DNA of 63,536 nucleotides, the filler included, from Dehalococcoidia bacterium (GTDB lineage: Bacteria; Chloroflexota; Dehalococcoidia; DSTF01; JACRBR01): the NCBI GenBank assembly GCA_041494685.1. It is 3 parts of 3 records of this genome, joined end to end, with 100 filler letters (N's around TTAATTAATTAA, not from the genome) between each part and the next. Parts side by side here need not be neighbours in the genome. Positions count along the whole stretch, not along the records: positions 1 to 25,733 come from JBGQBE010000047.1; 2 more parts are not named here. One strand, written 5' to 3'. How positions within the stretch are numbered: position 1 is the stretch's first letter; every line of letters begins with the position of its first letter. This document shows, one piece after another, positions 2,580-51,424 of this stretch. Position numbers and translations under genes: made by a program. The notes below the pieces were generated by a model that searched no databases, was not told the DNA's origin, and saw nothing but the letters and a program-made list of their open reading frames with translations.

Positions 2580-4247
2580 TTACCTCCGCGCGCCCACCGA
2601 CGCGATCTCTTCTCTCACCACGCCGCACAGGTGCTCGAGTTCAGCGTCTTCCGCCGCCTCTCGCAGCCGCACGCTCAGCGCGGGAAGGCCGTGGCTGTGC
2701 AGCGACTGCAGATCGCCGATCGCCTGCGCGCGTTTGAGCTGGCCGAATGTGAACGCCTCGCCGGGGATGGCCAGGTCGGTACCCTCCTGCGCGGTGACCT
2801 GCAGGAACACCCCGCGCGCCGGGCCTCCCTTGTGCAGCTGTCCGGTCGAGTGCAGGTAGCGCGGACCGTAGCCGAGCGTCGTCGCGGCGCCGCCGCCGCG
2901 CATGACGGCCGCCCGCATCTCGCGAAACTGCTCGTCCGCGCGCTCCGCCGGTTCGACGTATGCGGTGATGGCGAAGTAGCTGCCCGCGTGCAGCGACGCC
3001 AGCAGCGCCCCGATCTTCGCGCGCAACTGAGGATCGCGGGAGTCGCTTTCATCGATCGCGCCGAACGACCCGGCCCGCCCGAACTCCGCGAGTACGCGTT
3101 TCGTGTTGTCCTTCGACTCCTGCACGTTCGGCTCGTCGAACGGATTGATGCCCAGCACCTGTCCTGCCACGGCGACCGCGAACTCCCAGCGGAAGAACTC
3201 GCGCCCGAGATCGTAGGCGTCATCCAGATCGATGCTGATGACGGGCAGCCCTTCCGCGATCAGCGAGCCCACAGCCGCGTCCTCAGATCCGTTGCTGTCC
3301 GCCCCCAGCCGCATCCGCACGAACACGCGATCGCCGCCGTAGCCATGCGGTGAAGCGACCGGCTCGCCGGCTACGGGCAGGATGCCCCGGCCTTCCTTGC
3401 CGGTGCTTTCGGCGATCAACTGTTCCACCCACAGGCCGAACGAGCCGATGCTCGGAGATACGATGAACGTCGCCTTGTCGCGGCCGGCAAGCGCCAGCGC
3501 GCCGAGCGCCGCGCCGAGTCGCAGGGCATCGCTGTCCGCCGCGCGCGCGTCCTCCTCGGCGGCGATGCCCCGGTCCAGCAACCTGGCGACGTCCACGCCC
3601 GTGACGGCCGCCGGTACGAGGCCAAAGTACGAGAGCGCCGAGTAGCGGCCGCCGATATCGCCCGGGTTGACGAAGACGTGGCGGAATCCGTGTCGCGCCG
3701 CCAGATCCTGGAGCGGCGTGCCTGCGTCCGTGATGGCGACGAAGTTCTCGCCGGCGTGATCCGGCTTGACTCCGCGCACCAGGTCGTGGAAGAACGCGAA
3801 GAGCGACAGCGCTTCGATCGTCGTACCCGACTTCGACGACACGAAGAACAGGGTCCGCGCCGCGTCGATCTGCTCCGTCACCGCGCGGATCGTCGCGGGA
3901 TCCGTCGTGTCCAGTACGTGGAGCCGGGGCCAGCCCTTTCGCGCACCGAAGCTGCGCCGCATCACTTCCGGCGCGAGCGAGCTGCCGCCCATACCCAGCA
4001 CCACGGCGTCGCGGAAGCCGTCGGCGCGGACCTGTTCGGCGAACGCCTGCAGCATCGCGACGTTGGCACGCATCTGCTGCGCCACGTCGAGCCAGCCCAG
4101 CCGGTTGGCCACGGCCTCGTTTCGGGCTTGATCGCCGCCCCAGAAGGCCGCATCGCGTCGCCAGATCCGGTCGGCGGCGGACGCGGCGGCAAGGCTCTGT
4201 ATCCGGGCCTCTGCGCCTGCGTCATACCCGCCGAGGGTCAGCTTCAC
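2580..4247 (-). CDS. pgi: Glucose-6-phosphate isomerase (type usually fused to transaldolase)
   Basis: GMGGSSL, SKSGTTIE, GGRYSALS, EQLIAESTGK, NPFDEPNV, HSTGQLHKGG; GTG start overlaps the tal stop. Confidence 0.9.
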   Translation of the reverse strand: MKLTLGGYDAGAEARIQSLAAASAADRIWRRDAAFWGGDQARNEAVANRLGWLDVAQQMRANVAMLQAFAEQVRADGFRDAVVLGMGGSSLAPEVMRRSFGARKGWPRLHVLDTTDPATIRAVTEQIDAARTLFFVSSKSGTTIEALSLFAFFHDLVRGVKPDHAGENFVAITDAGTPLQDLAARHGFRHVFVNPGDIGGRYSALSYFGLVPAAVTGVDVARLLDRGIAAEEDARAADSDALRLGAALGALALAGRDKATFIVSPSIGSFGLWVEQLIAESTGKEGRGILPVAGEPVASPHGYGGDRVFVRMRLGADSNGSEDAAVGSLIAEGLPVISIDLDDAYDLGREFFRWEFAVAVAGQVLGINPFDEPNVQESKDNTKRVLAEFGRAGSFGAIDESDSRDPQLRAKIGALLASLHAGSYFAITAYVEPAERADEQFREMRAAVMRGGGAATTLGYGPRYLHSTGQLHKGGPARGVFLQVTAQEGTDLAIPGEAFTFGQLKRAQAIGDLQSLHSHGLPALSVRLREAAEDAELEHLCGVVREEIASVGARR

Positions 4248-18183: not shown

Positions 18184-18603
18184 ATGTCCGACTTTCCGCT
18201 CAAGATCGGCGACAAGGCCACATTCTCGAAGACCGTGACGGACGCGGACGTCGTGTCGTTCGCGCGGGTGACGGGCGACGAGCAGCCGCTGCACCTGGAC
18301 CAGGCGTTCGCCGCGAAGACGCGCTTCAAGGGACGGATCGCGCACGGCATGCTGTCGGCGGGGTTCATCTCGGCCGTGCTGGGCACGAAGCTGGCGCCGC
18401 ACAACGTCGTGGTGTACCTGAGCCAGCAGATGCGCTTCCGGCTGCCGGTGGCGATCGGCGACACGATCACGGCCGAGGCCGAGGTGACGGCGATCGACGT
18501 GGAGAAGCGCATCGTCACCGTCCGGACCGACTGCACGAACCAGCGCGGCGAAGCGGTCGTGAAGGGCGAGGCGACCGTGCTGCTGGACCCCGGCGTAGCC
18601 TGA
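18184..18603 (+). CDS. MaoC family (R)-enoyl-CoA hydratase, PhaJ-like
   Basis: FARVTGDEQPLHLD...RIAHGML hydratase-2 motif; AGGAG RBS. Confidence 0.92.
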   Translation: MSDFPLKIGDKATFSKTVTDADVVSFARVTGDEQPLHLDQAFAAKTRFKGRIAHGMLSAGFISAVLGTKLAPHNVVVYLSQQMRFRLPVAIGDTITAEAEVTAIDVEKRIVTVRTDCTNQRGEAVVKGEATVLLDPGVA

Positions 18604-18622
18604 GGCGCGGCACCGCGCGCGG

Positions 18623-18809
18623 GAGTTTGCTCGGCACTTTTCGTGTTTCCGGCGAGACGGGCGCGGCACCGCCGGAGTTTGCTCGGCACTTTTCGTGTTT
18701 TCGGTCCGGCGTGCCCGGCCGACGCCGAGTTTGCTCGGCACTTTTCGTGTTTTCGGCGGGGCGTGCCCAGGCGGAGCGGAGTTTGCTCGGCACTTTTCCG
18801 TGTTTTCGG
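18623..18809. repeat. Array of four 30-bp direct repeats GAGTTTGCTCGGCACTTTTCGTGTTTTCGG with 22-bp variable spacers (52-bp period)
   Basis: Copies start at 18623, 18675, 18727, 18779; copy 1 has one substitution, copy 4 a 1-nt insertion. Confidence 0.97.
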
Positions 18810-18906
18810 CACGGCAAAGCCGCCGACGCGAGGACGCGACGGCGGTTCGTGGTGTATTGCCGGGACTTCCTCGCGGCCGGCGCGCGAGCACGCTTTGTCG
18901 CCCGCG

Positions 18907-19422
18907 TCATGGCTCCGGCAGGCCGGTTATGTCGAGTCGAGCGAGCGGCGTCGGGTTGCCCTTCCGGCGCTCCTGCAGCGCCTCGAGATCGCGGAGGGCC
19001 TGAGAGAGCCGGCGGCCGTGGTGCGCCTCGTAGCGGATGATCTGCTCCATATGGCGGGGTTCGGGCAGCAACCGATGCAGGGGCGTGAAGGCGTGGGACG
19101 TGCCTTCGAGATCGCGCGCCAGCTTGTCGTTCGTGAAGTCATCGATGCTGATCATCTGGGCCTCGGCGCGGCCGCCGCGGCGGAGCCGCCACAGGTGCTC
19201 GACGATACGCTCGGCGATCGCGTATTCGACGGGGTTGTCGGGATCGAGCGCGGCGATGCCCTCGGAGCGGAACTGGTCCCAGTCCGCCTGTGACTCGAAG
19301 GCATCGACGACGATCGCGACGGTGCGGAGTCCGTAGCGGACGCTGTTGTGACGCACGGCGGCCTTGCCCTCGGGCGTCACAGGGCCGCCGGCATGGCGTT
19401 CGGGAGACGGTTGCTGTTCCAT
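18907..19422 (-). CDS. Conserved hypothetical protein, GPxTxEGK...WRLRR type
   Basis: GGPVTPEGKAAVRHNSVRYGL, ERIVEHLWRLRRGGRAE, IIRYEAHHGRRLSQALRDLEALQERR. Confidence 0.8.
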   Translation of the reverse strand: MEQQPSPERHAGGPVTPEGKAAVRHNSVRYGLRTVAIVVDAFESQADWDQFRSEGIAALDPDNPVEYAIAERIVEHLWRLRRGGRAEAQMISIDDFTNDKLARDLEGTSHAFTPLHRLLPEPRHMEQIIRYEAHHGRRLSQALRDLEALQERRKGNPTPLARLDITGLPEP

Positions 19423-19487
19423 GCGCGCAGGGTCGCCGATGGCGGGCGCGAACTCCAAGCGCCGCATGTCACACGCGGCGGGCGCGG

Positions 19488-20210
19488 CTACTTCCGGGCA
19501 GCGTCGATGCGCTGCAGCACCGTGCCGACGAGCGGCGTCAGCTCCGCGACGGGCGGCGTTCCGTTGCGCGCGGAGCCGACGACGGCGGTCACGTTGCCCT
19601 TCCGGAAGCCGACCACGAGCAGCGTCAGGTCGATCGTGAAGCCCTGCGCGCTCACCTGCCCGGCGAGCGTCGCCGCGAACGATCCGTCGCCGGTCGCCGG
19701 ATACTCCACCGGCGCGATGGCCACCTTGTCCGGGTCGATGAAGAGCTTGCCGAACGCGCGGGCGAGCTGGCCAGGCTGCTGCAGCTTGGTCGCGGCCTCG
19801 GCGGCGCAGTCGGACGCGCCGGCCTCCGTCGCGTAGACCGTCACCTGCGAGAAGAAGGCGACGGTCTCGCCGCCGATGAAGGCGGTGACCGAGTTCGGCG
19901 GCGCGGTCGTCAGCGTGCGGCCGAGTAACCGGCCGCAGCGCTCGTTCGAGGCGGCGGTCGTGGCATCGGCCGCCGCGGCGGCGGCGTTGTCCTGCGTGGT
20001 ATCGGCGCTGACGGTCCAGCCCGGCTCCGGCAGATCCTTCGGGGCAAGGACGACGCTGTCGATCAGCGTCTTCGCGCGGTCCACCGTGAACGGGACGGCG
20101 ACCCTGGTCGCGGTCGGCGCCGGAGTGGGCGTCTTCGAGGCGCCGCCGCTGCAGGCGGCGACGACGGCTGCGAGCGATATCGTGGCGATGGTGGCGATGA
20201 GTCGTGGCAT
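19488..20210 (-). CDS. Hypothetical lipoprotein
   Basis: Signal peptide with lipobox VAAC followed by Thr/Pro linker. Confidence 0.75.
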   Translation of the reverse strand: MPRLIATIATISLAAVVAACSGGASKTPTPAPTATRVAVPFTVDRAKTLIDSVVLAPKDLPEPGWTVSADTTQDNAAAAAADATTAASNERCGRLLGRTLTTAPPNSVTAFIGGETVAFFSQVTVYATEAGASDCAAEAATKLQQPGQLARAFGKLFIDPDKVAIAPVEYPATGDGSFAATLAGQVSAQGFTIDLTLLVVGFRKGNVTAVVGSARNGTPPVAELTPLVGTVLQRIDAARK

Positions 20211-25733: not shown

Positions 25734-25833
25734 NNNNNNNNNNNNNNNNNNNNNNNNNNNNNNNNNNNNNNNNNNNNTTAATTAATTAANNNNNNNNNNN
25801 NNNNNNNNNNNNNNNNNNNNNNNNNNNNNNNNN
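25734..25833. other. Artificial contig linker
   Basis: N44-TTAATTAATTAA-N44, stop codons in all six frames. Confidence 0.98.
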
Positions 25834-44446: not shown

Positions 44447-44474
44447 AGCAGACAACAGACAGCAGATAACAGAG
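44447..44474. repeat. Heptamer tandem repeat
   Basis: AGCAGAC AACAGAC AGCAGAT AACAGAG. Confidence 0.7.
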
Positions 44475-51324: not shown

Positions 51325-51424
51325 NNNNNNNNNNNNNNNNNNNNNNNNNNNNNNNNNNNNNNNNNNNNTTAATTAATTAANNNNNNNNNNNNNNNNNNNN
51401 NNNNNNNNNNNNNNNNNNNNNNNN
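51325..51424. other. Artificial contig linker
   Basis: N44-TTAATTAATTAA-N44. Confidence 0.98.

Follow-up and report, generated by a model that had tools for sequence, protein, structure and literature searches.

A small gene followed by a tandem repeat array in a Dehalococcoidia genome: a candidate full-length member of a dispersed gene-plus-repeat element family

Why is a small, unannotated gene of a Dehalococcoidia bacterium followed by a regular array of four repeats, and do gene and repeats belong together? The window, as the whole stretch of DNA analysed is called here, comprises 63,536 nucleotides (nt) of assembly GCA_041494685.1 and consists of three contigs of one genome, namely C47, C48 and part of C64, with N runs between them at 25734-25833 and 51325-51424. 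The locus lies on C47 (JBGQBE010000047.1; window positions 1-25733), and the other two contigs are outside the scope of the finding. A previous sequence-only reading had proposed that the gene and the array form one unit, and the gene, the hairpin in its trailer and the four repeats that it described are all present. In our preferred reading, on which our confidence is evenly divided, the locus is a full-length member of a modular, dispersed family of gene-plus-repeat elements, similar to REPIN/RAYT systems or to pairs of autonomous elements and miniature inverted-repeat transposable elements (MITEs), with a protein that acts on the repeated motif. This reading draws on the architecture of the unit, the linkage of gene and motif, deletion derivatives of gene-bearing units, amplification limited to gene-positive genomes and site differences between relatives, each of which was observed directly.

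The whole unit is located on the minus strand (18618..19473) and contains a 5' promoter-like module, an open reading frame (ORF), a trailer and a four-copy motif array, which together occupy the entire gap between the stop codon of an upstream ORF (19488-19490) and that of a convergent MaoC gene (18601-18603). Its coding sequence (CDS; 18907..19422, stop codon TGA at 18909-18907) encodes the 171-amino-acid (aa) protein P0001, which starts with MEQQPSPERHAGGPVTPEGK, and is preceded by the promoter-like 5' module 'U' (19429..19473). The 97-nt post-stop trailer (18810..18906), which shares homology with the body of the corresponding type of gene-less unit, includes a GC-rich hairpin, CCGCCGTCGCG-TCCT-CGCGTCGGCGG (18820..18845), with a perfect 11-bp stem and a 4-nt loop. 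The array begins 97 nt past the stop codon and comprises four copies of CCGAAAACACGAAAAGTGCCGAGCAAACTC, an A-rich repeat of about 30 nt with a 52-nt period: repeat 1 (18779..18809; CCGAAAACACGGAAAAGTGCCGAGCAAACTC, with one extra G), repeat 2 (18727..18756), repeat 3 (18675..18704) and repeat 4 (18623..18652), which begins with CCGG. Tandem Repeats Finder (TRF) assigned the array a score of 254, a period of 52, 3.7 copies and 84% matches, and an exact 26-mer is common to three of the four copies, which is far beyond chance. The 22-nt 'spacers' are alike in pairs, with GGGCACGCC in 1 and 2 and GGTGCCGCGCC in 3 and 4. Since the spacers resemble one another and TRF reports a second period of 104 nt, the array looks like a tandemly duplicated non-coding 52-nt unit and not like the product of repeat-spacer acquisition. 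Because the 52-nt period is not divisible by three, successive repeats fall into different frames, three in all, and encode no repeated peptide. Rfam covariance models gave two chance-level matches only, far below gathering scores, on the locus and six dispersed loci, and the trailer and array folded as RNA reached a z-score of only -1.95.

The motif recurs with nucleotide precision beside homologues of the gene. The loci compared comprise 37 from species-representative genomes (Dehalococcoidia/Chloroflexota and Rubrobacteraceae), 26 from the window's family and 71 of 80 metagenome loci, the nine left out being mostly matches to the N-terminal part only; these 134 loci less ten duplicates give 124 unique loci. 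A strict 12-nt core of the TGC-N-R-A-N-C-N-A-W-N type, which as a hand-made pattern misses variants, was sought at unique homologue loci from Chloroflexota, Rubrobacteraceae and metagenomes; 46 of 122 have it on the gene's strand no more than 60 nt past the stop codon, and in 33 of those 46 it starts at +3 to +5. The stop codons among the 46 are TAA (19), TGA (17) and TAG (10). At 10 of 105 loci, the core is found in the 5' leader instead, and at three further loci the ORF reads through the motif and ends in ..PKLRNELP* (L110, L118) or ..QFAEQTP* (L106), providing a counterpart to the C-terminal peptides that the sequence-only reading had described as three frames of one DNA repeat. In a control of 240 kb of upstream sequence, there were 2 reverse-strand and 25 forward-strand matches, many of the latter being leader copies. 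Overall, the motif is linked to the gene at 58 of the 124 loci, a lower bound because the strict core misses variants of the M2 type (described below), which were seen by eye in further loci. Gene and repeat are linked well beyond the window locus, as had been proposed: in metagenomes and in members of two phyla, the motif either abuts the stop codon of homologues or is found in their 5' leader. The suggested check for arrays downstream of homologues was borne out in part: arrays adjoin L059 (five copies), L060 (three to four) and L075 (three), but most homologues have a single motif copy. In all five Rubrobacteraceae genomes, the 15-mer AACTGCCRAACRAAC is single-copy, with coordinates inside the contig ranges of the gene loci.

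The motif is always located on the gene's strand and downstream of U, and its copies are direct. It consists of conserved sequence blocks with variable stretches between them and is G-poor and A/C-rich. Among 13 independent copies, the block from -16 to +14 around the core shows pairwise identities of 0.7-0.99, compared to 0.26-0.37 in the flanks; a 14-mer in this block was the criterion for picking copies, which the adjacent GAAAA and AAC positions were not. RNAalifold found no consensus pairs in 24 M2-type copies. In locus L012 (CAYOSF010000004.1), the last ~40 nt of the CDS (..PLARLDISAPPLT*) and the sequence downstream of it recur past the stop codon, about 150-200 nt apart, and in L037 a copy of the gene's 3' end precedes a second motif copy, so that the end of the ORF can be part of what is duplicated in tandem. 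Resemblances to the 530 loop and 3' end of 16S rRNA, dif, boxA and attC R'', noticed by eye, were judged too weak. Full-text searches for NALKHG, for 12-13-mers of the motif and for Chloroflexi repeats or MITEs found no description of the motif or the protein family in print.

The 3.29-Mb window genome contains dispersed copies of the motif. Its 20-nt core (M1) is present in 16 copies at 11 loci, with one, two or four copies per locus, and a longer relative of about 75 nt, M2 (GAAAnGTCGAAATTACAAAAC..AGATTCGA..GACATAAC), at 17 loci; M1 is followed by M2 at several loci, and U occurs at seven or more. These copy numbers are lower bounds because many dispersed loci lie within ~1 kb of contig ends, and reversed-pattern controls gave 0 and 3 weak matches. 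A tblastn search of the genome identified one clear paralogue, P0011 on contig C37, and a weak third match on C32 (E 0.002). The P0001 gene is followed by four copies of M1 and the P0011 gene by an M2 copy 209 nt downstream. Four loci (C17, C28a, C23 and C7) align to the C37 unit at 56-247, corresponding to the promoter-like region, 5' untranslated region (UTR) and first codons, and at 1188-1288 (M2), with the CDS missing. Four others (C54, C43, C28b and C68b) align to the window unit in two parts, one immediately before the ATG (74-134) and one spanning the trailer that follows the stop codon together with the first repeat (653-785); it is 154-274 of C54 and 129-245 of C43 that align to this second part of the oriented unit. 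Judged by these alignments, the gene-less loci are internal-deletion derivatives of two gene-bearing units. The repeat is formally scattered through the window genome, where only one of the 11 core loci adjoins the gene, a pattern that the earlier reading had expected of a repeat independent of the gene; however, the other copies are gene-deleted derivatives, and amplification is found only in gene-positive genomes. Dispersal and deletion derivatives fit the option of a small selfish element, which that reading had also raised. By eye, C54 and C43 have hairpins of different sequence at the place that matches the hairpin in the window trailer.

Two further observations concern the surroundings of P0011. 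Between its stop codon and M2 (G000 C37:33515-33640; L010 ~3516-3641) are two tandem ~90-nt copies (..AGCTCCGCCCGCCGAAAGAYCCGCAGCATCATCCCCGTAG..). Upstream of the gene (C37:30000-32490; L010:2-2486) lies a stretch of low GC content (53-64% vs 68% for the genome), with genes for an N6 DNA methylase and for a type II specificity-subunit-like protein.

Amplification of the motif goes with the presence of the gene. Counted by a 15-nt degenerate pattern (reversed-pattern controls 0-3), copies number 95 in genome G024, 30 in G013, 28 in G004, 25 in G014, 21 in G021, 18 in G007, 17 in G048 and 16 in the window genome, and the dominant motif variant differs genome by genome. Arrays of 3-7 copies at 36-55-nt periods are common; contig C20 of G024 has a four-copy array with a 52-nt period, and the spacers in G024 arrays are near-identical. 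Among 58 genomes of the window's order with a completeness of at least 85%, five or more copies are present in 11 of the 32 gene-positive but in none of the 26 gene-negative genomes, where the highest count, 3, is no more than the control level. All 11 amplified genomes belong to family f1 (11 of 15 gene-positive vs 0 of 8 gene-negative genomes); these tallies include the unpublished genome G021, without which the f1 counts are 10 of 14 vs 0 of 8. In a wider set of 36 genomes of the family, the corresponding numbers are 16 of 23 and 1 of 13. Furthermore, sites differ between relatives. A unit of ~400 nt lies between two divergent genes in G024, where G014 has a unit-less spacer of ~75 nt, and another orthologous site contains five motif copies in G024, two in G048 and an inverted unit in G049.

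Module U has a recurrent pattern composed of a GTGACA/GTGATCC (GTGAYM) box, ~8 nt, (C)TTGGAG(A/T)TC, and 17-18 nt from TTGGAG to TAnnnT. In the window unit, GTGACA (19473-19468) is followed by a -35-like TTGGAG (19458-19453), an 18-nt spacer and a -10-like GACCCT (19434-19429). As the ATG lies 6 nt beyond the -10-like box, we infer that the mRNA is leaderless or has a very short leader. The boxes are conserved and the spacer variable in the gene-less units of the window genome and in units of G024 and G004; on this conservation pattern, U is a putative promoter. A regular expression for U matches 22 times in the window genome, ~17 of these within units by eye. Public gene calls (P0002, P0003) begin 15 codons earlier, inside U (window 19423-19467; MRRLEFAPAIGDPAR..), a start that is common to the database call of P0001 and its 82%-identical relative; this start probably extends the gene too far, because it translates the conserved promoter-like module. 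U-like modules without a recognized M1 or M2 nearby were also seen in the window genome (G000 C20:694, C1:122905, C50:10661, C11:69734 and C68:8848), and the one on C20 is followed by a Shine-Dalgarno sequence and an ORF starting with MPRGGRRPG.., which is possibly a distant family member.

P0001 belongs to a large family. A profile built from nine relatives retrieved 27,360 cluster representatives at E <=0.001 and 12,547 at E <=1e-10, with two size classes of about 180 and about 290 aa. Family hallmarks are an N-terminal GPxTxxGKxxxxxNAxxHG (GPxTxEGK..N..HG in P0001) and a C-terminal RYEAHxxR...HELEALQxRRxGxxxPLARLDIxG, which reads RYEAH..R....LEALQ.RR.G...PLARLDI.G in P0001. P0001 and its relatives have no match in Pfam (searched to E 10 for P0001), NCBIfam, PHROG or PADLOC, a profile search of the PDB found no match at E up to 10, and neighbours in the ESM Atlas are only unnamed 'hypothetical protein' clusters from Acidobacteriota and Thermodesulfobacteriota. 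AlphaFold predicts an all-helical hairpin for the short form (mean predicted local distance difference test score, pLDDT, 88.6) and an all-helix structure for the long form (pLDDT 89.1). The models show a long antiparallel hairpin; its variable tip is where the long form has its insert, and Arg, His, Glu, Trp and Tyr residues that are conserved cluster at its base. This basal cluster comprises E66, R72, W78, R82, R130, Y131, H134, R137, H144, E145, E147 and R153. Fold searches, which had been suggested as a way to a known fold, returned only generic helical hairpins for the short form (best Z 7.2, Foldseek E >=0.49) and generic coiled-coil hairpins for the long form (best Z 8.3, Foldseek E >=0.12). 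The resemblance to small terminases noted earlier found no support: Pfam and PHROG gave no match, viral contigs contained no relative, and the predicted fold is a helical hairpin; in addition, the neighbours are not phage packaging genes. A Cas1 signal on the insert of the long paralogue P0011 (Pfam E 0.0085, sub-threshold; PADLOC E 0.00091) was dropped because the long-form model is purely helical and the fold searches gave generic matches only. The family has a patchy, accessory distribution and occurs in 23 of 36 genomes of the window's family, with 0-7 matches each.

If the preferred reading of a dispersed gene-plus-repeat element is correct, a unit would be built from (i) module U, (ii) an optional ORF, encoding a helical-hairpin protein of ~170-300 aa, (iii) an unstructured, A-rich motif of ~27 nt, single or in several copies, on the same strand, beginning 3-5 nt past the stop codon in gene-bearing copies, and often (iv) a second 3' module (..AGATTCGA..GACATAAC). 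Gene-bearing units would represent the 'full' form and the mini-units of promoter and motif its non-autonomous derivatives, which would arise by internal deletion and then be copied to new intergenic sites, while arrays would grow via tandem duplication of the motif-plus-spacer unit. By analogy to RAYT/REPIN and autonomous/MITE pairs, the protein would recognize the motif, whether within the transcript or as DNA, and motif-bearing units would depend on it for their spread or maintenance. It is the best candidate for motif recognition because its gene is linked to the motif with nucleotide precision across phyla, the paralogues have their own motif types with their own derivatives and amplification occurs only with the gene; we infer by the same analogy that it binds the motif and drives copying. 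Recognition at the RNA level is favoured by the strand specificity, the lack of symmetry, the placement in the presumed transcript and the retained promoter-like module, although the protein may recognize DNA instead. More tentatively, in a proposal that is more probably wrong than right, the GPxTxxGK helical-hairpin family might constitute an unannotated, phylum-spanning new class of gene-plus-repeat replicator. Here, a protein without a known enzyme fold would recognize a linear ~27-nt motif at the end or start of its own transcript and promote the copying of promoter-carrying mini-units, possibly via an RNA-protein intermediate or recruited host recombination, by a mechanism unlike those of HUH, DDE, serine/tyrosine-recombinase and retro-elements.

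A large unannotated family now has a concrete candidate partner, a 27-nt motif set at the stop codon with nucleotide precision, and natural 'experiments' within it are provided by genomes whose copy numbers are 0, 1 or 95, by arrays of 2-7 copies and by gene-less derivatives. If the protein acts on the motif, either short repeats would have a novel route for spreading through bacterial genomes or the pair would be an RNA-protein regulatory module of a new kind. Many spurious short ORFs in high-GC genomes, and gene calls extended there into U or the motif, would be accounted for as well. For annotation, some of the intergenic repeats and many of the contig breaks in these Chloroflexota genomes can be put down to the units.

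Several observations weigh against the preferred reading. No terminal inverted repeats (TIRs), target-site duplications (TSDs) or exact element ends were found in flank alignments, in which orthologous spacers are too diverged to fix ends, and sequence-family, PDB and fold searches recognized no transposase, recombinase or nuclease fold or motif. The gene-negative genome G049 (67% complete) has 13 copies. Amplification, as seen with the pattern used, is limited to one taxonomic family; copy numbers are 0-4 in 21 of the order's 32 gene-positive genomes, and the motif is single-copy in all five Rubrobacteraceae genomes, so the gene is not sufficient for spread. Related genomes are, moreover, non-independent samples. 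The U expression also matches 9 times in the reversed-genome control, and a sigma-70 consensus scan of 18400-19700 finds no sites. On contigs from two other sediment samples, the four-copy array of the window is identical, and neither an excision nor an insertion intermediate was observed. Contigs of four DNA runs contain no reliable joint that skips the gene or array; the joints listed in them have sides of 20-38 nt and probably derive from other organisms or repeats.

Among known systems, the element works most like RAYT/REPIN, autonomous/MITE pairs and, in its modular build, BOX elements, yet the defining features of each, namely an HUH transposase, a palindromic repetitive extragenic palindrome (REP), a TIR or TSD and extensive structure, were not found. 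RAYTs are IS200-like HUH/Y1 transposases. In REPIN/RAYT systems as described in the passages cited, a cognate repeat flanks the gene and is dispersed in extragenic space (PMC3116915, PMC3337134, PMC5581495). Our element shares with them a low-copy gene flanked by its cognate short repeat, an extragenic distribution of the repeat as singlets, doublets and clusters, genome-specific variants and amplification that goes with the gene (G049 being the exception). In contrast, P0001 has no Pfam or NCBIfam transposase match and is predicted to be all-helical without beta-sheet. Furthermore, REPs are palindromes and REPINs inverted doublets that form hairpins, whereas the motif is unstructured, direct and strand-specific, and the units described here have a promoter-like 5' module and derive by deletion from a gene-bearing unit. 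As in autonomous/MITE pairs, short copies keep both ends of a long copy without its ORF, one deletion type is present in several copies (C17, C28a, C7 and C23) and filled and empty sites occur between relatives, but no TIRs or TSDs were seen in flank alignments and the product of the ORF is unlike any known transposase. BOX elements of Streptococcus pneumoniae follow a boxA-boxB(n)-boxC scheme and are likewise dispersed repeats of modular build, in which the number of central tandem subunits varies. According to the passages cited, they are sometimes transcribed, have extensive secondary structure and have no known dedicated gene (PMC3049150). The motif, by comparison, is unstructured and tied to a protein family, and the two show no sequence relation. 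The motif also differs from integron attC sites in being unstructured, its units are dispersed singly and its arrays are without ORFs, although the intI gene was not searched for.

The strongest rival, which we nevertheless consider unlikely, is a host regulatory RNA-protein system, in which the units would be small-RNA genes and the protein an RNA-binding regulator whose own mRNA bears the motif in its 3' or 5' UTR, with gene-less units serving as sponges or co-regulated RNAs and arrays tuning the number of binding sites. CsrB/RsmZ-type RNAs, with several copies of a short single-stranded binding motif for the small protein CsrA, would be a precedent for non-coding RNAs with a repeated short motif. 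This view fits a motif that is always on the gene's strand and downstream of U, lacks consensus pairs and lies just past the stop codon or in the 5' leader, as well as the conservation of U boxes and motif amid variable spacers and leaders. In the window genome, 9 of 17 M2 copies are furthermore located 56-212 nt upstream of a same-strand gene. However, the genes downstream of M2, called with a crude ORF filter based on GC content at third codon positions, include recA, a Y-family polymerase, a P450, an E1 dehydrogenase and a HAD hydrolase, among others, and are functionally unrelated. The copy upstream of recA is found in the window genome only, with none of 26 relatives having M2 within 600 nt. 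Genome-specific variants, copy numbers of 0-95 and differences in presence or orientation at orthologous sites are features of a proliferating repeat, and in Csr systems the gene of the protein is not known to bear a motif array and the RNAs are few, occupy conserved loci and are not known to form a proliferating family that varies from genome to genome.

The M2 copies at recA and polymerase genes had raised the idea of a role in the SOS/LexA regulon, which was rejected because the recA copy is absent in all 26 relatives, whose recA promoters bear other conserved boxes. Nearly all of the recA upstream regions listed in the taxonomic family (L192-L220) have TTGACA-N17-TATGAT between AGAACAnnnGTnC and TAGnGCnTnTGTTCTA boxes, which look like ordinary LexA-type operators. 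An M2 unit at C3:109184-109560 lies between same-strand genes for a DnaE-like polymerase (1176 aa) and a Y-family (ImpB/DinB-type) polymerase. In G046, a single-contig genome, a motif copy (C1:2500721) is found ~107 nt downstream of recA.

An improbable alternative is that the motif serves its gene in cis as a passive signal, for example as a factor-dependent terminator, a nut/boxA-like antitermination site or an RNA-stability element, which was locally duplicated and copied along with promoter fragments without any specific link to the protein. Its fixed place right past the stop codon irrespective of the stop type and its G-poor, A/C-rich, unstructured sequence would suit such a signal, and on the opposite strand two of the four repeats form a short hairpin with a T-rich tail that faces the convergent MaoC gene. 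Terminator-like matches, however, number 2 compared to a shuffle expectation of 1.4 and are not above it, and the hairpin is missing from most copies. In addition, other homologues have the motif in their 5' leader, a sequence of 15-20 nt is conserved across two phyla specifically beside genes of the family, and amplification is confined to gene-positive genomes, all of which argue for a specific link.

Less probable still is a module resembling the toxin-antitoxin (TA) systems of type III, in which transcribed repeats would be processed to unit-length RNAs that neutralize the protein. Known members (ToxIN, CptIN and TenpIN) likewise combine a small gene with tandem repeats of tens of nt in one transcription unit and a defence-island context, and here repeat units of 35-55 nt lie beside a small gene behind the same putative promoter, in a family often found in defence-island neighbourhoods. 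In the passages cited, type III antitoxins are short tandem repeats that form RNA pseudoknots and are located upstream of the toxin gene (PMC3401426), and the toxin is an endoribonuclease (PMC3401426, PMC8860590). By contrast, our repeats are downstream of the gene and have no consensus structure, arrays are optional with one copy only in most homologues, many units are gene-less, no PADLOC match was found and the models contain no beta-sheet. The ToxN, CptN and TenpN families have no PADLOC or Pfam match to P0001 and are absent from the fold-search lists, which could miss them.

The guide-RNA array of CRISPR or tandem interspaced guide RNA (TIGR) type with the protein as effector or adaptor, which the sequence-only reading had considered from the regular 52-nt spacing and the trailer between gene and array, can be set aside as extremely improbable, since the spacers are related and not unique (alike in the window, near-identical in G024 arrays), most homologues are single-copy and arrays optional in the family, no cas genes are among the neighbours (MaoC, esterase and an unmatched ORF), P0001 belongs to no Pfam or PADLOC family, no Cas or Nop-domain match was obtained (Pfam to E 10) apart from the sub-threshold Cas1 signal on the helically modelled P0011 insert, and a 62-residue helical-hairpin match to TasH (Z 7.5) is helical-protein noise.

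The window copy lacks defence or mobile neighbours, unlike many homologues. Downstream of it lies the convergent, plus-strand gene for a MaoC-like dehydratase and upstream the 263-aa ORF without a Pfam match, and an esterase gene is also present in the neighbourhood. It is common for homologues to have housekeeping genes on one flank and, on the opposite flank, restriction, defence or mobile genes such as ResIII, HNH with DndB, FRG with GmrSD, a methylase with a Z1 domain, PIN, Eco57I, DUF3854/DUF927, IS4/5 transposase fragments and RepA. In Rubrobacteraceae, an ORF of 214-221 aa is convergent to the homologue (L027:3936-4592, L029:2429-3091 and L031:3933-4574, minus strand) and ends ~25-35 nt beyond the motif; it has no Pfam match, and the ORF of L027, which was checked against PADLOC, has none there either. 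DUF3854 primase-like genes are located upstream in L031 and L032, with DUF927 also in L031, and an upstream ORF in L027 matches a DRT-associated DnaG-like PADLOC model.

Short tandem runs of heptamers or octamers flank many units and are reminiscent of cyanobacterial short tandemly repeated repetitive (STRR) sequences. In the window genome, they are of the GGTTCTK/GGGTTCT type and occur at C54:21150-21500, C63:11000-11250, C37:33775-33810 and C10:21990-22030, while in G024 (L222, G024:C1) five copies of GCTGACAA lie beside units. Runs of the GGTTC type also follow some motif-less homologues (L023, L036), and a CAGACAA run occurs by itself at window positions 44449-44473.

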